Shown: positions 8,117 to 56,597 of the stretch, one piece after another
How the letters are laid out: each line of letters begins with the position of its first letter
How positions within the stretch are numbered: the stretch's first letter is position 1
Source: a bacterium
GTDB lineage: Bacteria; DUMJ01
Reading direction: 5' to 3'
NCBI GenBank assembly: GCA_014360335.1
Contig: JACIXS010000100.1
Span: forward strand, 24,431 to 88,430
Length of the DNA: 64,000 bases
Notes under the pieces: model-generated
Told to the model about the DNA's origin: nothing
Seen by the model: only the letters and a program-made list of their open reading frames with translations
Database searches by the model: none
Made by a program: the position numbers and the translations under genes

Positions 8117-8469
8117 TGGTGGAGGCGGCGGGAATCGAACCCGCGTCCGAGAATGAGACGCCAAAAGGCTCCTACAGGATTAGCCTCTGTTTACTTTTCC
8201 TTCTATAGGACCCCAGAGGCAGGGCTATAGAAGTAAGCTCACCTTTAATTTCCTCTTCCCCCTGTGAGCACCGGAGGAAGAGTTAGCCTGCTAGTGTCAG
8301 GCCATTTCCTACCTCGCAGGCTAAGGTAGGAATGACCTCTGCCTATCTAATTAGGCAGCTAGTGCTAACTGATTGTCAGCAGTTATTCTTTTACCGCATT
8401 TTTACGAGCCTGCGGTGACTCGTCCTGCTCCTTTTGACCTCTCCATCCCCGTCGAATCCTTACGCCCCC
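8117..8469 (-). ncRNA. ssrA: tmRNA (SsrA)
   Basis: The minus strand reads 5'-GGGGGCGUAAGGAUUCGACGGGGAU... and ends ...GGACGCGGGUUCGAUUCCCGCCGCCUCCACCA-3'. The acceptor stem has the G3:U pair. An internal tag reading frame GCU GAC AAU CAG UUA GCA CUA GCU GCC UAA encodes ADNQLALAA. Confidence 0.92.
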
Positions 8470-8924
8470 TTATACTCTTTTAAGGCTCTTTCAAGTTCTC
8501 TTACCTTTTCTTTTTCTATAAGTAGCTTCTTTTTATCTACTAATTTTCTACCCTTTGCTAAAGCTATCTCTAGCTTAGCTCTTCCTCTTCTAAAGTATAC
8601 CTTTAATGGGATTATAGAGTATCCTCGTAATTGGCTCCTACCTGCGAGGTACTCTATCTCTTCTTTATGGAGGAGAAGCTTTCTTGTCCTATCAGGGTCC
8701 AAATTATATCTACCACCCTCTTTATAAGGTGGTATATGCATATTTATTATCCATGCTTCTCCATCCTTTATCTGTATATAACTATCTCTTAGATTACAAC
8801 TCCCTCTTCTAAGACTCTTTACTTCAGTTCCAGATAATACTATTCCTGCCTCTAATGTCTCTTCTATATCGTAATCATGATAAGCCTTTCTGTTAACTGT
8901 TACTACCTTTTCTTCCTCTTTCAA
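8460..8924 (-). CDS. smpB: SsrA-binding protein
   Basis: SmpB family (NRKAYHDY...LSGTEVKS...), 154 aa. Its stop codon overlaps the 5' end of tmRNA by about 10 nt. Confidence 0.93.
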   Translation of the reverse strand: MKEEEKVVTVNRKAYHDYDIEETLEAGIVLSGTEVKSLRRGSCNLRDSYIQIKDGEAWIINMHIPPYKEGGRYNLDPDRTRKLLLHKEEIEYLAGRSQLRGYSIIPLKVYFRRGRAKLEIALAKGRKLVDKKKLLIEKEKVRELERALKEYKGA

Positions 8925-24079: not shown

Positions 24080-25195
24080 GTGAAGATATTATTTCTTACC
24101 GCTAGTATAGGAACAGGACATAACAAGGCGATAGAGTCTGTAGCTAATGCGTTAAATATAATCTGCCGAGAAAAAGGATTAGAAGATATCGAGTATAAGA
24201 TTGTTGATGTATATAATTACATAAATGTGGCTTTGGGTAAGTTTGTTTCTAAGAGTTATGAGAGGATAGTAAATCTTGCACCAAATCTCTATGGTTATTT
24301 CTACACTTTAGGGGAAGATTCTACCGCTTTAAAGGAATTCCTACACCATATAGGCGTAGGAAGGGTAAAGACCCTTATTGAAGAGTATAATCCAGATATT
24401 ATCGTTTCCTCCCATGAATCTCCCTCAGGCATGGTGGCTAGTCTTAAAAAGGAGCAAGGTTTGAAGACAGAATTAATAGGTATAGTTACTGACTTTAGAG
24501 CCCATCCTTTTTGGGTTTATAATGAGATAGACAAGTATATGGTCCCTAACGAATTTACTAAGAACTACTTAATTAAGGAGGGAATTTCTCCAGAGAAGAT
24601 ATATATTACTGGTATACCAGTAGACTTAAGATTTGCCCAAGAATATGATAAGGCAGAGCTGAAGAGAAGGTTTAATCTTGACCCTGATAAGTTTACTATA
24701 CTTTTAATGGGAAGCTGGCTCGATATAGGCATAGATAGTCTTATAGAAGCCTTAGATAAGGCATCTTTGCCTATTCAGATTATTGCTGTATCGGGTAAGA
24801 ATGAGAGGTTGAAAGAACGCTTAGAAAGGATAAAGAGTAAGACAAATATACCTCTAGTAGTTTTTGGCTTCATCACTAATGTTTATGAAGTTATGCATGC
24901 GTCTGACATAATAATAACAAAACCTGGAGGACTTATCTCCTCTGAAACTTTGGCGTCTGGACTTCCTATGATTATAGTAAATCCAATACCTGGACAGGAA
25001 GAATTTAATGCTATATATCTTACTACCGAAGGTGCTGGGTTAAGGGTAAACAAACTCTCCGAAGTTCCTACCGTAATAGAGTTACTATTGGGAAGTCCAG
25101 AGAGGATTAAGGAAATGTCTAATAATGCTAAGAGGATAGGAAAACCTAGAGCAAGTTTTGAAATAGCAGAGATTATTCTATGCAGAAGGGATTAG
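24080..25195 (+). CDS. Glycosyltransferase of the MGDG-synthase / UgtP (GT28) family; putative glycolipid synthase
   Basis: The N-terminal LFLTASIGTGHNKA motif is typical of the MGDG_synth N-domain, and a GT-B C-domain follows. GTG start. Confidence 0.7.
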   Translation: MKILFLTASIGTGHNKAIESVANALNIICREKGLEDIEYKIVDVYNYINVALGKFVSKSYERIVNLAPNLYGYFYTLGEDSTALKEFLHHIGVGRVKTLIEEYNPDIIVSSHESPSGMVASLKKEQGLKTELIGIVTDFRAHPFWVYNEIDKYMVPNEFTKNYLIKEGISPEKIYITGIPVDLRFAQEYDKAELKRRFNLDPDKFTILLMGSWLDIGIDSLIEALDKASLPIQIIAVSGKNERLKERLERIKSKTNIPLVVFGFITNVYEVMHASDIIITKPGGLISSETLASGLPMIIVNPIPGQEEFNAIYLTTEGAGLRVNKLSEVPTVIELLLGSPERIKEMSNNAKRIGKPRASFEIAEIILCRRD

Positions 25196-38383: not shown

Positions 38384-38394
38384 GTAAAAGCTGT

Positions 38395-38575
38395 GAAGAG
38401 GAGTAGTAGCCATTTAAGGTGAACTCGCCTCAGAGCTGGATAGGTGAAATAGTAGTAGCTTATCCCGGGAATTCCCGTTATAGAATAGAGAGTGGGCTTA
38501 AAAGCCAATTAGGGTGGTACCGCGGAAAGCTTTCCGTCCCTAGCAGTTTGCTGTGGAGGGAAAGCTTTTTTATAA
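38395..38575 (+). promoter_or_regulatory. T-box riboswitch leader, with its intrinsic terminator spanning roughly 38526-38571
   Basis: Canonical T-box sequence AATTAGGGTGGTACCGCGG at 38507-38525. It is immediately followed by a terminator stem AAAGCUUUCC...GGAAAGCUUU plus UUUUUU whose 5' arm overlaps the T-box, which is the antiterminator/terminator alternation. A possible CUC (Leu) specifier lies in a GAACUCGCC context. Confidence 0.8.
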
Positions 38576-38595: not shown

Positions 38596-40260
38596 ATGCG
38601 TAGTGATGAAGTTAAAAAAGGAATTGAGAGGGCTCCACATAGGTCACTTTTAAAGGCATTGGGTATAGACGATGAGGAACTAGATAAACCTTTTATAGGG
38701 GTAATAAATAGCTATTCGGAGATAATTCCTGGCCATATACATTTGGCAAAGATAGCAGAGGGGGTAAAGGCTGGCATAAGAGAAGCAGGTGGAATTCCGT
38801 TTGAGTGTGAAACGATAGGTATATGCGATGGAATAGCTATGAATCACAGTGGAATGTGTTTTTCTCTTCCGTCTAGGGAACTTATTGCAGATAGTGTTGA
38901 ATCACTTGCCGAGGCATATAAATTTGATGGCATTGTAGTCATTCCTAACTGTGACAAGATTGTCCCTGGTATGATTATGGGATTGGCAAGGGTAAATATC
39001 CCTTCTATACTTGTCAGTGGTGGACCTATGTTGCCTGGAGAATATAACGGAAAAAGGATAGACCTTTCTACTATATTCGAAGCGGTTGGAGCTGTTGCTA
39101 GTGGTAAGAAAGATATGGAATATTTAAGAGAGCTGGAATACTCTGCCTGTCCTGGGTGTGGATCTTGCGCTGGAATGTTTACAGCAAATTCTATGAATTG
39201 TCTATCTGAGGCTATTGGAATAGCCCTTCCTGGAAATGGTACTATACCTGCAGTTGAAGCGGGAAGAATAAGATTAGCCAAAGCTACAGGAAGAGCAATA
39301 GTAAGACTAGTTAAGGAGAACATTATACCTAGTATGATTCTTACCAAGTCAGCGTTCTTGAATGGAATAGCCTTAGATATGGCTTTGGGTTGTTCCACTA
39401 ATACGATCTTGCATCTTACTGCTATAGCTAACGAGCTAGGTATCGGATTAGATTTTGACGAGATAAATAGTATAGCTGATAAGACTCCTTATCTTTGCTA
39501 CTTGAGTCCTGTAGGTCCATACTATGTAATAGACCTTTATAGGGCTGGTGGAGTTATGGCTGTTTTAAAAGAGCTTAACAAGAAAGAGCTTGTAGATAGG
39601 AATACACTTACGGTTAGCGGAAAGAAGCTAGGAGAGTTGATAGATAGTGCTGAGGTAAAAGATTATAATGTGATAAGGCCCATAGATAATCCTATAAGAG
39701 AAACGGGTGGATTATCTATACTTAGGGGAACTTTAGCTCCAGATGGGGCGGTAGTTAAGAGATCAGGAGTAGCAGAGTCTCTTTATAGATTTATTGGAAA
39801 GGCTAAGGTTTTTGATGGTGAAGACGAGGCCACAAAAGCCATATTTGGTAATAAGATAGAAAAGGGTGATGTAGTTATAATTAGATACGAGGGACCTAAG
39901 GGTGGTCCTGGAATGAGAGAGATGCTTACTCCTACATCTGCTCTTGTTGGTATGGGATTAGATTTAGATGTTGCTCTTATTACTGACGGTAGATTCTCTG
40001 GTGCTACTAGAGGATTAGCTATAGGCCATGTATCTCCAGAGGCTTGGGAAGGTGGACCTATAGCTTATGTACGAGATGGAGACCTTATAGAGATAGACTT
40101 GAATAAGAGAGAAGTGAATCTTCTAGTTGATAAGGAAGAGATTGCTAGAAGAACCTATAAGGTTCCAGAGAGTCATAAGCGTAAAGGATATCTTGGTAGA
40201 TATCAGAAATTAGTATCCTCTGCTTCATTTGGAGCAGTTATGGAGGTAAATAGAAGATGA
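38596..40260 (+). CDS. ilvD: Dihydroxy-acid dehydratase
   Basis: ILVD_EDD family with Fe-S cysteine motifs (CDKIVPG, CPGCGSC). Confidence 0.95.
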
Positions 40261-41924
40261 GATTAACCGGGGCACAGATAGTTATTGAAGCATTGAAACA
40301 TGAAGGGGTAGATGTTATCTTTGGAATCCCAGGAGGAGCAATCATTGATGTCTATGATGCCTTATATGATTCAGGTATAAGACATATCCTTGCCCATCAT
40401 GAGCAGGGTGCAGCCCATATGGCTGATGGTTATGCTAGAGCTACTGGAAGAGTAGGAGTATGTTTTGCTACCTCAGGCCCTGGAGCAACTAATCTTACTA
40501 CAGGAATAGCTAATGCTTATATGGATTCTATCCCTATAGTAGCGATTACAGGACAGGTAGCTACTCATTTGATAGGGAAAGATGCATTTCAGGAGGCAGA
40601 TACAACTGGTATTACTTCACCAATAACAAAGCACAATTATCTTGTAAAAGACGTTAATGAATTAGCCAGAATTATAAAGGAAGCATTCTATATAGCAAGA
40701 ACTGGACGACCTGGGCCTGTCCTTATAGACATACCTAAAAATATACAAACTGCTACTGCTGATTTTGATTACTCTTCTATAGAGATTGATATAAGGGGTT
40801 ACAAGCCTTCAATAACCGGACATATAAGACAGATAAAGGAAGCGGCTAGGCTTATAAATGATGCTAAGAAGCCTTGTATATTAGCTGGAGGCGGAGTTAT
40901 AACTGCAGGTGCAAGTGAGGAGCTCTTTAAATTAGCCACGAAAGCTAATATACCTGTGGCAACAACCTTTATGGGTATAGGAAGCTTCCCTCAAGACCAC
41001 CCATTATCCTTAAAATCCGCTGGTATGCATGGTAATTATGCTGCGAACTATGCCCTTATGGAGTGTGACCTACTCATAGCTATAGGATGTAGATTTAGTG
41101 ATAGGACTACTGGTAAGGTTTCTAGTTTTGCTTCTAAGGCTAAAAAGATTCATATAGATATAGACCCTGCCGAGATAAATAAGAACGTAATAGTAGATGT
41201 CCCTATAGTTGGAGATGCTAAGATTATCTTGAAAGCACTTATAGAATACGTTCAAGAGAAGAGGGAAGAGGAATGGCTAAGTTATATTATGGAACTCAAA
41301 GCTACTCATCCCCTTACATATGCAGATGGACCTACAATTAAGCCTCAATTTGTTATAGAGAAGCTCTGTGAGATAGTCCCAGATAATACAATTATAGTAA
41401 CAGAGGTAGGACAGAATCAGATGTGGTCCGCTCTATTTTTCACCCATAAAAAGCCTAGACACTTTATATCTTCTGGTGGTTTAGGAACTATGGGTTTTGG
41501 TTTTCCTGCTTCTATTGGAGCTAAGGTTGGTAGACCTGACGCGCTTGTAATCGATATAGCAGGGGATGGAAGTTTTCTAATGAACATTCAAGAACTTGCC
41601 ACTGCAGTAGAGAATAACATACCTATTAAAGTAGTTGTAATAAATAACAGGGCTCTTGGAATGGTTAGACAGTGGCAAGAGTTGTTCTATAAAAGGAGAT
41701 ATTCTGCTACTATCTTGAAAGAGGTTAATTTTGCTGAGATAGCAAAGGCTTTTGGAGCTAAGGGGATAAGGGTGACTGAGAAGGAAGGACTAGTTCCTGC
41801 TCTATACAGCGCTTTTGAATATCCAGGACCTGCGGTGGTGGATGTAGTAGTAGAACAGGAAGAGAATGTGGTACCGATGGTTCCTCCGGGTGCTCCAATA
41901 GACCAAATTATTGGAGGTAAGTAG
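40257..41924 (+). CDS. ilvB: Acetolactate synthase, large subunit
   Basis: TPP enzyme with the [21 protein letters not shown]-binding motif. Confidence 0.93.
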
Positions 41925-51317: not shown

Positions 51318-53288
51318 TTACCTGAATATTATACCAAATACTAGCGCAATTATAGACATAAGCTTTATCAAGATATTCATAGAGGGACCTGCGGTATCCT
51401 TAAACGGATCACCAACAGTATCTCCAATTACAGCTGCTGCATGAGTGGGTGTTCCCTTACCACCTAAATTCCCAGCTTCGATGTACTTCTTAGCGTTATC
51501 CCAAGCACCACCGCTATTTGCCATCATAATAGCTAATGCTACCCCTGTCAATATAGCACCAAGTAGAAAACCTCCTACAGCTTCTTTACCCAACACTAGT
51601 CCTATAATAATGGGGGCAACAACCGCTGTAATGCTAGGAGCTAGCATCTCTCTTAAAGCTCCTTTAGTGGCTATGTCTACGCAACGTGCATACTCTGCTC
51701 TTGCCTTTCCTTCCATTAGCCCCTTAATCTCTCTAAATTGCCTCCTTACTTCTTCTACTATCAGATTAGCGGTTCTACCTACTGCTTCCATAGCAAATGC
51801 AGAGAACATAAATGGCATTAAGGCTCCTATAAATGCTCCTATTAGAGACTTAACAGAGAGGATATTCACTATACTTAGACCTACAGTATGTGTATAGGCA
51901 CTGAATAGGGCAAGAGCGGTTAATGCTGCAGAACCAATAGCAAAACCCTTCCCTATGGCAGCAGTGGTATTCCCTAGAGCATCTAGTCTATCTGTTATCT
52001 TACGAATATTAGCTCCAAGTCCAGCCATCTCAGCTATACCACCTGCATTATCTGCTATTGGTCCATAGGCATCTGTTGACATCACTATGCCTATAGTGGC
52101 TAACATTCCAACTCCGGCTATAGCTACACCATAGAGTCCATTCAGAGCCCAAGATATACCAATAGCACCTGCAATCATTATTACTGGCACTATGATGCTC
52201 TTCATTCCAAGGGCAAGTCCCCTTATAATAACCGTACCAGCACCGGTCTGTGCACTTTCAGCTAGAGATACTATAGGTTTACCAGATGTATAATACTCAG
52301 AGACAAGACCAATAATTATCCCCACTATAAGCCCAGCCAATAATGCAAAGAGTGGATTATAGGTATTTAGTAGGGATTTTGTTAAAGGTATAGCTACTAT
52401 TACTAAAATGATCGCAGATACATAGGTTCCCCATCTAAGAGCAGATTGGGGGTCTCCTTTCCCAAATAACTGTACATAGAAAGATCCAATTATAGATGCT
52501 ACGGTTCCTACAGCTATAAGGATAAGAGGATATAGGATTGCATTTAGGGATAACTCTTTAGAGAATGCAGTAAGTCCTATTACCATAGCAGCAATAACAG
52601 CTCCTACGTATGATTCAAAGAGGTCTGCACCCATCCCTGCAACGTCTCCAACGTTATCTCCTACGTTATCCGCTATGACACCCGCATTTCTTGGGTCATC
52701 CTCAGGTATATTCTTCTCTACTTTACCTACTAAGTCTGAGCCAACATCAGCGCTTTTTGTATATATACCTCCTCCTACACGGGCAAATAGAGCTACTGAG
52801 CTAGCACCCATTCCAAATGCATTTATAACGTTAGGGTCTTTAAAGATTAGGTAGGCTATAGAAAGACCAAATACCCCAAGACCTGCAACTGCAAGCCCCA
52901 TTACAGAGCCACCAGTGAAGGCAACTCTCAAAGCTTGAGACTGACCCTTCTTTGCTGCTTCTGTAGTCCTTACATTGGCTCTAGTAGCAGCTTGCATACC
53001 AAACCATCCTGCAAATATAGAAGATATACTACCCATAACGTATGCGATAGCACTGTACGGATTGATAAATATGGCTATTACAGCAGTCATAACGATAATA
53101 AAGTATACAAGAGTCAGATACTCCCTCTTTAAAAATGCTACTGCTCCTTCGTGTATAGCGGATGCTATCTCCCGCATTCTCTCTGTTCCAGCTGGTTGCT
53201 TTGATACCCAGGTATAGAAATAATATGCGAGCAGTAGCGTCCCACCTCCTATGATTGTAGAAAGCGTTAATAAGGTATTACTGCTCAT
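51318..53288 (-). CDS. hppA: Membrane-bound proton-translocating pyrophosphatase (V-type H+-PPase)
   Basis: Multiple PPase acidic motifs ([26 protein letters not shown]) and about 16 transmembrane helices. The ATG at 53288 (MSSNTLL...) is preferred because a GGAGGAAGGAG RBS sits 8 nt upstream; the ORF-track start at 53309 falls inside that RBS. Confidence 0.9.
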
Positions 53289-53308
53289 ATACGTCACTCC
53301 TTCCTCCA

Positions 53309-53869
53309 CTAGGATTTTATAGAATTAATTTTTTGCTTTTGTTTATGTCTTTTCTCTAACTCCCTGTATACATCTTGAGGAGTCAGCTTTAAATTTGCTA
53401 GTAAGACCAATATGTGATAGAAAAGGTCAGAGACTTCATATATCACCTCACCACGATCCTCTTTCATTCCTGCCAGAAGGACCTCTACTATCTCTTCCCC
53501 TATCTTTTTAAGTATCTTTTCTTTACCCTCTTTAAAGAGTTGAGATGTATAAGAACCTTCGGTAGGGTTAAGTTTTCTGGATAGGATGATTTCGTAAAGG
53601 GTATCCAGATTAAATCTAGTATAGTCTTCTTTAGAATACAACTCTTGGAAAAAGCATGATAGATGTCCTGTATGGCAGGCTACTCCCCTTTGTTCTACTA
53701 GTACAAGTAATGCATCATTATCGCAATCCAATCTAATCTCTTTTACCTTTTGTATATTGCCACTAGTTTCCCCCTTATTCCATAACTTTTGCCTCTCTCT
53801 ACTCCAAAACCAAGTAGTCCCTGTTTCTATTGTCCTTCTCAGAGACTCCTCATTCATATAACCCAACAT
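53309..53869 (-). CDS. hisIE: Bifunctional phosphoribosyl-AMP cyclohydrolase / phosphoribosyl-ATP pyrophosphatase
   Basis: HisI motifs ([27 protein letters not shown]) and a HisE C-terminus. The conserved HisI N-terminal segment continues in frame upstream of this ATG without a canonical start codon (see findings). Confidence 0.85.
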
Positions 53870-53952
53870 AAGGACTTCACCTGAGTTAGCCTCCTGAATA
53901 ATAGCCGGGATCAGTCCGTCTTTGTTATATTTTATGTTAGATAACTCTATAT

Positions 53953-54714
53953 TTATAATCGTACAGGGATCCCTTCCTCTTTTAGATACTCTTTTATTTC
54001 TCTTATAGTATACTTTTTATAGTGGAGTAGAGAGGCTATTAATGCAGCGCTTGCCTTTCCATCTTTCAATACATCTCTTATATGTTCTAGGCTTCCAGCT
54101 CCACCAGATGCTATAACAGGTATATTAACCGCTTCTGCTACAGCTCTAGTAAGGGCTATATCATACCCTTGCTGAGTTCCATCAGCATCTATGCTTGTAA
54201 GTAAGATCTCTCCTGCCCCTAAACTTTCTACCTCTTTTGCCCAGCTTATTGCTTCTAGGTTAGTAGGTGTAGTTCCTCCATTTATGTAAACCCTCCATCC
54301 TTTCATATCTTCATCTCTTTTTGCATCTATGGCTACAACAATACATTGTGACCCAAAGATTTTTGATGCTTCTGTTATAAGGGATGGATTTTTTACCGCT
54401 TGAGTATTTATAGAGACCTTATCTGCTCCTGACCTCAGTATTTCCTTTATCTCTTCTATACTCCCTATACCACCTCCTACCGTAAAGGGGATAAACACCT
54501 TAGATGCTGTTCTCTTTACAAATTCTACAATAGTTCTTCTTCTCTCAAGAGATGCTGTTATGTCTAAAAATACTAATTCGTCCGCTCCTTCCTTATCATA
54601 ATATTCTGCTAGCTCTACAGGGTCTCCAGCATCTTTTAAGTCGATAAAGTGCATCCCTTTTACTACCCTTCCATCTTTTACATCAAGACAGGGAATTATC
54701 CTCTTAGTGAGCAT
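53953..54714 (-). CDS. hisF: Imidazole glycerol phosphate synthase, cyclase subunit
   Basis: [17 protein letters not shown]-terminus. Confidence 0.95.
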
Positions 54715-55417
54715 AACTTATCGCCTCTTCTAAGTTGATCTTACCCTCATATAGGGCTTTACCTATAATAGCCCCAGTAGCACCAGCCTCTTTTATCCTC
54801 TTTATATCCTCTATAGTGCCTATTCCACCAGAGGCTATAGTTGATACCCCTACAAAGGCTATAAACCTCTTTAATCCTTCTATATCTGGGCTATTTAGAG
54901 TTCCATCCCTCTCTATATTGGTATAAATAAATTCCTTAACTCCAAAGTCTTTTAATTTCTTGCCAATATCTATATAGTTAAATCCTGTCTCTTTTAACCA
55001 TCCGTGTATAAGAATCTTTTCCTCTTTTACATCTAAACTTACTATAATGTTCTCCTGATGCTTCGAAAGGGCTTCCTCTAAGAGCTTCTCGTCCTCAAAC
55101 ACTATACTACCAAGTATCACCTTTTTAACTCCACTATTTATGTACTCCTCTATGTATTCTAAAGACCTAATTCCACCGCCAACTTGAACTGGAACTTTCA
55201 ACTCCTTTATAATTTTCAGTATGATATCTCTATTTACTGGCCTTCCCAATCTAGCACCGTCTAAATCTACAATATGTATCCTATCTGCTCCTTTACTTTC
55301 CCAATTCTTTGCTACCATTACAGGGTCATCACTGTAAACGGTCTTCTTACTAAAGTCCCCTTTAACAAGTCTAACACATCTTCCTTCTATTATATCAATA
55401 GCTGGTATTATCTCCAT
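54704..55417 (-). CDS. hisA: ProFAR isomerase
   Basis: IIPAIDI...G start and a (beta/alpha)8 HisA pattern. Confidence 0.92.
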
Positions 55418-56018
55418 AGACGATATCTAAAAAGTTCTTATAGATTTTTAATCCTTCCTTACTACTTTTCTCAGGGTGGAATTGGACAGCAAATACATTA
55501 TCCTGCCATATAGCAGATGGAAAGATGATTCCATACTCTGTTTCTCCACAGATCACTCTTTCATCTATAGGCTCTCCGTAGTATGAATGAACAAAATAGA
55601 AGAACCCTTCTGAGTTAATTTCTCTAAAGATTGGTGCGTCCTTTACAATTTTAACTTGATTCCAACCTATGTGTGGAAGAGGAAGATTATTTGGAAGCTT
55701 TTTCACTTTACCCTTTATAATACCTAGTCCTTTCACTTCTGGAGACTCTTCACTTTCTTCAAAGAGAAGCTGTAACCCAAGACAGACTCCAAATAAGGGT
55801 ATCCCTTTATCTATTGCCTCTTTAATAGCCTCACATAATCTCTTTTCTTCTAGAAGCTTCATTCCCCAGCCAAAGGCTCCAACTCCGGGAAGGACAAGCC
55901 CTTTTGCCTTGAGTATATCAGTAGAAGCATCTGAGACTACCACGTTAGCTCCAAAATATTCTAAAGCCTTTCTTACACTGAATAGATTTCCTGCACCGTA
56001 GTCTATTATGGTGATCAA
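55395..56018 (-). CDS. hisH: Imidazole glycerol phosphate synthase, glutaminase subunit
   Basis: Class I glutamine amidotransferase (GVCLGLQ, HPE). Confidence 0.92.
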   Translation of the reverse strand: MITIIDYGAGNLFSVRKALEYFGANVVVSDASTDILKAKGLVLPGVGAFGWGMKLLEEKRLCEAIKEAIDKGIPLFGVCLGLQLLFEESEESPEVKGLGIIKGKVKKLPNNLPLPHIGWNQVKIVKDAPIFREINSEGFFYFVHSYYGEPIDERVICGETEYGIIFPSAIWQDNVFAVQFHPEKSSKEGLKIYKNFLDIVYGDNTSY

Positions 56019-56021
56019 CTT

Positions 56022-56597
56022 TTACAGAACCCCTTTGGTTGAGAGGATATCATCTATTTTTCTTGTAGCTTCTTTTAGAGATATTCCTAATGATTTTATA
56101 AGACACTCTGCTATATGGTGAGAATTATTCCCTCTAAGTTTTAAGATGTGAAGAGTCATCCTACTATTCATAGCGAAAGCTCTCAAGAACTCTGTAAGCC
56201 ATTCGGTTTGAAAGGTTCCTATAAAGCTATCAGTAAATAGATCGTTAGTTTCAAAATAAGGTCTCCCACTGATATCTATACTTGAGATTATTAGTGCATC
56301 ATCCATAGGAATTATCGAATAACCAAATCGTGCTATTTTAAAGTCTCCTAATGCCTTGTTGAGTGCAGAACCTAGGACTATCCCGACATCCTCACATAGA
56401 TGATGCCCATCTACTTCTAGGTCCCCTTTGGCAGAGATATCTATATCAAAACCACTATAAAGGGCAAATGAGGTTAAAAGATGATTAAAGAAGCCAATAC
56501 CCGTATCAATATTACCTCTTCCAGTTCCATCTATATTTAAACTTATCTTTATATCTGTCTCTTTAGTTGTTCTAGCTATAGAAATCTCTCTAGCCAC
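56022..56597 (-). CDS. hisB: Imidazoleglycerol-phosphate dehydratase
   Basis: IGPD family (TKETDIKISLNIDG; D/H-rich metal motifs). Confidence 0.92.
   Translation of the reverse strand: MAREISIARTTKETDIKISLNIDGTGRGNIDTGIGFFNHLLTSFALYSGFDIDISAKGDLEVDGHHLCEDVGIVLGSALNKALGDFKIARFGYSIIPMDDALIISSIDISGRPYFETNDLFTDSFIGTFQTEWLTEFLRAFAMNSRMTLHILKLRGNNSHHIAECLIKSLGISLKEATRKIDDILSTKGVL

Follow-up and report, generated by a model that had tools for sequence, protein, structure and literature searches.

A conserved hisIE gene that probably starts at a near-cognate codon overlapping the end of hisF

The closest described parallels to the gene start considered here come from Escherichia coli and Staphylococcus aureus. 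In E. coli, infC and pcnB start at AUU, and reporter measurements place initiation from AUA, AUC, AUU and CUG at 1-2% of that from AUG and from other codons, including ACG, at 0.1-1%, with Met-initiated protein from ACG confirmed in these reporters (bioRxiv 10.1101/063800). Messenger RNAs bearing AUA can compete well in vitro (PMC5499595). In S. aureus, infC, ccpN, citZ (AUA) and cvfC1 (AUU) combine such codons with extended Shine-Dalgarno (SD) sequences and reach approximately 10-30% of AUG (PMC13009471), and translational coupling at -4 overlaps between genes is likewise documented (PMC6728339; PMC12548453). Here we describe hisIE, which encodes the HisI (PRA-CH) and HisE (PRA-PH) domains in one product, in a 64,000-nt stretch of bacterial DNA (hereafter the window; positions 24,431 to 88,430 of contig JACIXS010000100.1, assembly GCA_014360335.1), together with its counterparts in 13 further lineages. 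We consider it very likely that hisIE is functional and initiates at a near-cognate codon within the 9-nt zone ACG-AUU-AUA (53962-53954), which overlaps the hisF stop codon and the two sense codons before it, and we read the arrangement as a real, conserved and gene-specific non-canonical start of a kind that is already known. All coordinates are positions in the window, where the his genes read on the minus strand.

Like infC and pcnB of E. coli, whose starts are sensitive to IF3, hisIE is a conserved gene without AUG, GUG or UUG that presents a near-cognate codon after an SD, for which low efficiency is expected (PMC5499595). Unlike these two genes, hisIE has no single conserved AUU (4 of 14 lineages), its candidates being ACG, AUA and AUU, and its initiation site overlaps the codon that ends the gene upstream. 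The AUA and AUU starts of S. aureus, a set that includes metabolic genes, resemble hisIE in that a strong extended SD is kept among relatives, whereas those starts were mapped by ribosome profiling and that of hisIE is predicted, with 16 nt between SD and AUA and with a stop-start overlap inside an operon. The junction also recalls the NTGA (-4) overlaps of co-directional operon genes, since the hisIE ATA and the hisF TAA share two bases, although the overlapping start is ATA rather than NTG and coupling at this site is putative. An ACG at the start position of a conserved protein is familiar from plant organelle genes and some eukaryotic viruses, and the organellar ACG is usually edited to AUG; hisIE similarly has ACG at a candidate start position, in a domain of life for which we know of no C-to-U editing of mRNA.

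Upstream of the ATG at 53869 the hisIE frame runs on through 49 codons without a stop, as far back as a TAA at 54019, and ATG, GTG and TTG are all absent from these codons, a feature first pointed out in a preliminary description of the locus and borne out by our codon scan of the frame; the positions given there for the ATG (53869-53867), the ATT (53959-53957) and the ATA (53956-53954) are also correct. The 3' end of hisF reads GTA CGA TTA TAA, and in the hisIE frame the junction becomes ACG ATT ATA AAT ATA GAG TTA TCT AAC ATA AAA TAT AAC AAA GAC GGA, so that the candidate starts overlap the hisF stop by -4 (ATA), -7 (ATT) and -10 (ACG). That description had named ATT and ATA as the only plausible initiators, a list that proves too short because ACG 53962, ATA 53950 and ATA 53935 are also in frame. 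The window has a GC content of 38%, and no other long open reading frame (ORF) within it has an unexplained open region ahead of its start, which points to a property of the gene rather than of the genetic code used by the organism; on the same ground we rejected the idea that non-canonical starts are habitual throughout the genome. When the window was scanned for tRNA genes in case it encoded an unusual initiator, only the tmRNA came up.

The comparison set consists of the window and 13 further distinct lineages drawn from NCBI, ENA, JGI and Logan assemblies, found mainly through exact-protein look-ups, with a metagenome scan contributing L082 (among the matches listed). With L183 left out, protein identity to the window across HisA, HisF and HisIE is 71-86% for these lineages; L183, the closest relative, has a HisIE that is 93% identical to that of the window. 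The order hisH-hisA-hisF-hisIE-hppA is kept in all 14, and a canonical start that would include the conserved first strand of HisI is missing from the window and from 12 of its 13 relatives. The sole exception, L173, has an in-frame ATG (D-I-S-M-V-K-F) one codon upstream of the position of the 53935 ATA, where its methionine matches an internal methionine of Selenomonas HisIE (DISMVKF) and may not be a start.

Homology, selection and structure each indicate that the segment upstream of the ATG is coding. Both Pfam domains, PF01502 (PRA-CH) and PF01503 (PRA-PH), are found in the hisIE product, and the extended translation aligns with Shigella HisIE (6j2l; E 3e-48, query residues 13-206) and with Methanobacterium HisI (1zps), where the match starts at query residue 7; the product is also homologous to 7bgm. 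The Pfam PRA-CH model starts only at MLGYMN and covers the short form fully, so that Pfam alone does not reveal a truncation. Over the 22 codons that precede the ATG, all 91 pairs formed by the 14 lineages together give a proportion of synonymous differences (pS) of 0.78 and of nonsynonymous differences (pN) of 0.10, hence a pN/pS of 0.125, compared with 0.19 for the first 100 codons after it. Synonymous sites are near saturation, and the lineages therefore act as effectively independent witnesses. In an AlphaFold model of HisIE, for which a small alignment was used, residues 17-23 (IPAIIQE), which are encoded upstream of the ATG, form beta-strand 1, and the 10-residue blocks of predicted local distance difference test (pLDDT) scores over it average 92 and 85; strand 2 spans residues 29-35, so that Met31 falls inside strand 2. 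The PRA-CH core, as seen in the HISN2 structure, is a beta-grasp sheet with its first and last strands at the centre (PMC8102479). Because strand 1 is both upstream of the ATG and central in the fold, the 186-aa product would lose a core strand, and a full HisIE with both domains and strand 1 requires a translation start upstream of 53869.

The codons that follow the hisF stop are coding-like as well. They specify D/N, hydrophobic and S/T residues, change mostly by synonymous or conservative substitutions across the lineages, stay in frame through an indel of 6 nt, and match the N-termini of Negativicutes HisIE proteins such as MSIDISKVKF and MIDISKIKF; at the first codon after the stop, the alternation of Asn and Asp tracks that of TAA and TAG. 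Since these codons are coding-like and match the Negativicutes N-termini, the start should lie at or upstream of 53954. Upstream of the ACG, residues in the hisIE frame are unconserved and follow synonymous changes in hisF. Homology and purifying selection across the lineages show the extension, as we read them, to be coding and translated, and the AlphaFold model shows it to be structurally needed. The view of the preliminary description that the segment before the ATG is coding is upheld by the match to solved HisI and HisIE structures and by the pN/pS of 0.125, whereas its two alternatives do not survive: a truncated HisI is at odds with the purifying selection on the extension and with the position of strand 1, and an assembly indel with a startless arrangement found in independently assembled lineages.

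Placement of the ribosome at this junction appears to depend on an extended SD inside the last codons of hisF (53980-53968). Its predicted duplex with the 16S tail has an energy of -13.6 kcal/mol, stronger than 85% of the SDs of window genes and attained by only 0.5% of sites inside coding sequence, and it recurs in the same register in 14 of 14 lineages at -11.2 to -15.1 kcal/mol as the block AAGGA[A/G]GGGAU[C/U]. Within this block Gly248 is GGG in 12 of the 13 complete hisF sequences, and also in L183; the exception, L169, compensates with GGAGGGU. In the window as a whole GGG accounts for only 16% of Gly codons, and among 124 conserved Gly columns from four genes no more than 2 are GGG to 85% or above. 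The SD is kept against codon bias. Its strength and conservation show initiation at hisIE to be, on our reading, at least partly SD-guided. As a reference for spacing we used the 33 window genes with a recognisable GGAGG-like core, whose spacers range from 3 to 15 nt, lie mostly between 5 and 12 nt and have a mode of 7-10 nt; measured from the core GGAAG (53977-53973), the ACG lies at 10 nt, the ATT at 13 nt and the ATA at 16 nt. Judged by SD geometry, ACG is favoured; judged by stop-start geometry, with its -4 overlap, ATA is.

Conservation distinguishes the three codons further. The ACG at 53962 is present in 14 of 14 lineages, within an invariant TACG, and is the only near-cognate codon found in all of them. 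The hisF codon that contributes its last two bases, Arg252, is CGN (CGA, CGG or CGT) in all 14, although 90% of Arg codons in the window are AGR and the eight other conserved Arg columns of hisF are AGR in 103 of 104 cases. We take the CGN at Arg252 as suggestive of an ACG start, having downgraded it as proof after a control on conserved Arg columns (p approximately 0.1) and because the tree requires only approximately 4 third-base changes at this codon, against 0 first-base changes. The stop-overlapping ATA (as ATAA or ATAG) is found in 11 of 14 lineages, and the three that lack it, L171, L173 and L181, carry an ATA two codons downstream, at the position of 53950. The ATT is otherwise ACT, GCT, TCT, GAT or AAT; even L183, the closest relative, has ACT instead, and the tree shows at least 3 losses of the ATT, which makes it, as far as conservation can tell, the weakest of the three. 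Of the proposal in the preliminary description that hisIE starts at ATT or ATA at the hisF stop, the ATA part holds up well, with its -4 overlap, its recurrence and its selection as the start in the NCBI record, and the ATT part does not.

Several observations weigh against initiation in this zone or against one of its codons. The invariance of the ACG is largely forced by the coding of Val/Ile251-Arg252 in hisF, and in the control 4 of 33 conserved Arg columns are all-CGN, the other three being CGT in hppA. ACG is also weaker than AUH in E. coli, at 0.1-1% against 1-2% of AUG (bioRxiv 10.1101/063800). The ATT is kept in only 4 of the lineages, and the ATA overlapping the stop is absent from L171, L173 and L181 and has a spacer of 16 nt from the SD core, beyond the usual 5-12 nt. 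The invariance of the A that forms this ATA in clade A is not significant, given that 15% of degenerate third positions and 6 of 18 Leu columns (33%) are invariant in that clade. Finally, the SD energies assume a generic 16S tail as anti-SD, since the 16S gene lies outside the window. Weighing the candidates together, we infer that ACG and AUA are about equally likely to be the codon actually used, each being possible and neither reaching an even chance; a start elsewhere is distinctly less probable, and AUU is quite unlikely.

Our literature search for natural bacterial ACG starts found none, the reports being mostly viral, organellar or eukaryotic, together with engineered E. coli systems, and we know of no validated natural bacterial case. 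Translation table 11 disallows ACG as a start, so no annotation pipeline could propose it. That ACG is the true hisIE start throughout the clade, created or kept through the rare CGN codon of hisF and served by the SD 10 nt upstream, is a tentative proposal that leans towards the unlikely. If correct, it would to our knowledge provide the first case of a natural, conserved ACG start in a bacterium and would add to the start codons known from bacteria; it would also place ACG initiation at high temperature if the organism lives at approximately 77 C.

The mechanism that we propose would begin with the extended SD in the 3' end of hisF, which would place the 30S subunit over the ACG-AUU-AUA zone. 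Ribosomes that end hisF at UAA (53955-53953) would be released on this same zone, so that hisIE is probably coupled to hisF. The initiator tRNA would then pair imperfectly with one of the three codons, or with a mixture of them, and the N-terminus of HisIE would begin fMet-(I)-(I). Efficiencies of such starts range from a few percent to some tens of percent of that of AUG, so that less HisIE than HisF would be expected. We infer that coupling to hisF contributes, and termination-reinitiation at the hisF stop is plausible. At the junction we found no conserved RNA structure that could account for the conservation of TACG or for coupling of the unfolding type (consensus fold -0.9 kcal/mol, with no covariation).

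The junctions of Negativicutes suggest how the arrangement may have arisen. In Pectinatus, Megamonas and an Acidaminococcaceae metagenome-assembled genome (MAG), hisF ends GTA AGA TTA/CTA TGA and hisI starts at the ATG of an ATGA overlap, precisely where the ATA of the window sits; in Schwartzia, the junction is a TGATG overlap instead. The clade thus seems to stem from a coupled junction of the ATGA type, from which the ATG was lost. The TTATAA of the window corresponds to the ATGA arrangement with a G to A change that keeps the hisF stop and degrades the hisI start, and, set against P. cerevisiiphilus (TTA TGA TAG ATA), the clade resembles the product of a 3-nt deletion of the ATG/TGA triplet. 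Loss of the ATG by either route, substitution in ATGA or deletion from a Pectinatus-like TTA-TGA-TAG, would give the present sequence.

Two other explanations keep the protein and move its start. In the one, translation would begin further downstream, at ATA 53950 or 53935, to give a protein that starts just before K-Y-N-K-D-G-L and retains strand 1. An ATA at the 53935 position in 11 of 14 lineages, the ATG of L173 one codon upstream of that position, which implies that a short N-terminus could be viable, and the ATA at the 53950 position in all three lineages that lack the stop-overlapping ATA speak for it. However, neither codon has an SD (-4.0 kcal/mol at 53950 and -2.8 kcal/mol at 53935) and the conserved SD would be 22-38 nt away; the 53935 ATA is GTA in L179, L173 and L181, with no replacement in L179 and L181; the codons between the hisF stop and 53935 are coding-like and match translated N-termini of outgroups; and the L173 ATG may be no start, as Selenomonas HisIE has an internal Met at the matching place. 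We consider a downstream start improbable. On the other explanation, the 186-aa product of ATG 53869 would be the sole form of the protein, the segment before it a relic, and a HisI lacking strand 1, or the HisE half, sufficient. The short form covers the whole Pfam PRA-CH model, is the type that most metagenome gene calls report, and has a moderate SD-like AGGTGA before its ATG (-8.4 kcal/mol), yet a relic would neither give a pN/pS of 0.125 at saturated synonymous divergence in 14 lineages nor keep its frame through a 6-nt indel, and strand 1 is confidently modelled and central in the fold. A gene limited to this product is thus very improbable. The internal site itself (Met31; 53867-53890, minus strand), with the AGGTGA 8 nt upstream of the ATG, may give rise to a minor 186-aa proteoform in which only the HisE half is intact.

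The remaining explanations do away with the start codon or with the gene. A programmed -1 frameshift near the end of hisF would produce a HisF-HisIE fusion with no need for a start, and the hisIE frame is indeed the -1 frame of hisF, open from 54016. A heptamer of the dnaX type, A_AAA_AAG, lies just upstream of the SD-like block in 5 of 14 lineages (L001, L003, L081, L169 and L183), where it spans hisF codons 244-246 (equivalent to 53977-53985 in the window) and is followed by an open -1 frame. The window, however, reads A_AAA_GAG, and A_AAG_AAG, A_AAA_AGG, A_AGG_AAG or A_AAG_AGG stands at this place in eight further lineages; with this slippery heptamer unconserved, no conserved structure downstream to stimulate slippage, and unconserved residues upstream of the ACG that track hisF synonymous changes, we rejected frameshifting and give it a very small chance. 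We also know of no HisF-HisIE fusion. An error of assembly or sequencing (indel or substitution) or a decaying pseudogene could be suspected from a single MAG-derived sequence, which may hold errors, and from gene calls of 177-186 aa that resemble truncations. This is ruled out for practical purposes by the comparison across lineages, 13 of which share the feature while differing at most synonymous sites and stemming from various projects and assemblers, and by purifying selection on the whole of hisIE. Initiation at a near-cognate codon within the ACG-AUU-AUA zone accordingly remains the reading that we prefer.

The near-cognate start has left its mark on annotation. The NCBI protein MBC7319799.1 (215 aa), an exact match to the sequence and carried by a 95-kb contig, starts at ATA 53956, and the NCBI annotation pipeline (PGAP) chose the equivalent ATA in L003 (MGC8971382.1), the ATT in L081 and, in L181, an ATA nine codons upstream of the ACG, inside hisF; these choices are homology-guided and mutually inconsistent among orthologues. 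The ATG that the preliminary description treated as the annotated start is that of Prodigal-type callers (186 aa) and not that of the NCBI record. Many database homologues are called at 177-186 aa, starting MLGYMNEE, alongside a few longer NCBI calls. Callers limited to ATG, GTG and TTG thus remove 30 residues, including a core beta-strand, and such short forms are common among entries for the clade.

The arrangement represents a weak start that has been maintained for long and across a clade on a housekeeping biosynthetic gene inside an operon, implying that production of HisIE at a fraction of the HisF level is deliberate, or at the least tolerated. The relatives are MAGs, two of them from the JGI samples 3300000085 and 3300000106, whose record names suggest Great Boiling Spring at 77 C, and the record of one clade member is labelled Dictyoglomota bacterium; the lineage is probably thermophilic. 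It offers a natural case for the study of near-cognate initiation combined with stop-start coupling in such a lineage, where mismatched codon-anticodon pairing should be less stable still at high temperature. Coordinates of the his cluster and of the features of the junction are collected in Table 1.

Table 1. The his cluster and the hisF-hisIE junction, in window coordinates. The cluster order is hisB, hisH, hisA, hisF, hisIE, hppA.
Feature	Position	Strand	Remarks
hisB	56022-56597	-	his cluster
hisH	55395-56018	-	his cluster
hisA	54704-55417	-	his cluster
hisF, 253 aa	53953-54714	-	3' end holds the SD and overlaps the hisIE initiation zone; PF00977 in relatives
hisF stop TAA	53953-53955	-	
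hisIE, longest plausible form (ACG to TAG 53311-53309)	53309-53962	-	PRA-CH (HisI) and PRA-PH (HisE)
N-terminal extension, 28 residues	53870-53953	-	without ATG/GTG/TTG; includes beta-strand 1
Candidate start ACG	53960-53962	-	last base of hisF Val251 (GTA) and first two of Arg252 (CGA)
Candidate start ATT	53957-53959	-	
Candidate start ATA	53954-53956	-	overlaps the hisF stop as ATAA (-4 geometry)
In-frame ATA, further candidate	53950	-	SD-like pairing -4.0 kcal/mol
In-frame ATA, minor candidate	53933-53935	-	SD-like pairing -2.8 kcal/mol
Internal ATG (Met31, counted from ATT)	53867-53869	-	Prodigal-type start, 186 aa
Extended Shine-Dalgarno AGAGGAAGGGAUC	53968-53980	-	within the last hisF codons

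Overlaps also occur elsewhere in the cluster, between hisA and hisF (11 nt; 54704-54714, minus strand) and between hisH and hisA (23 nt; 55395-55417, minus strand), and no SD can be recognised ahead of hisA. Reliance on overlaps appears to extend to the whole his cluster, in keeping with coupled translation along the operon. Downstream of hisIE, the start of hppA, whose product is a membrane pyrophosphatase, is ambiguous (53288-53311, minus strand): with a GTG at 53309, which shares bases with the hisIE stop (TAGTG), the product has 663 aa, and with an alternative ATG at 53288, preceded by GGAGGAAGGAG, it has 656 aa, the length called in several relatives. In the hppA alignment (window gene 51318-53288), columns 177, 436 and 542 hold an Arg encoded by CGT in nearly all lineages, which suggests CGT-specific selection at these three sites. 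Two database HisIE entries, P0005 (318 aa) and P0139 (301 aa), contain an internal duplication of the PRA-CH region, and P0139 also reads through the junction, with the hisF-frame residues GRDPCTAIDLSGIKF; both have the look of chimeric assemblies or of misassembled tandem repeats in ENA contigs.

Further from the his cluster, the window contains a tmRNA gene (8117-8469, minus strand; Rfam 211 bits) with the tag peptide ADNQLALAA, whose 5' end is overlapped by 10 nt by an ORF at 8460-8924 (minus strand). A T-box leader (38384-38544, plus strand; 107 bits) lies directly upstream of ilvD (38596-40260), which is followed by a gene for an acetolactate-synthase-like TPP enzyme (40257-41924). We read the ilvD locus as a branched-chain amino-acid operon under T-box control, in the lineage labelled Dictyoglomota in one record.

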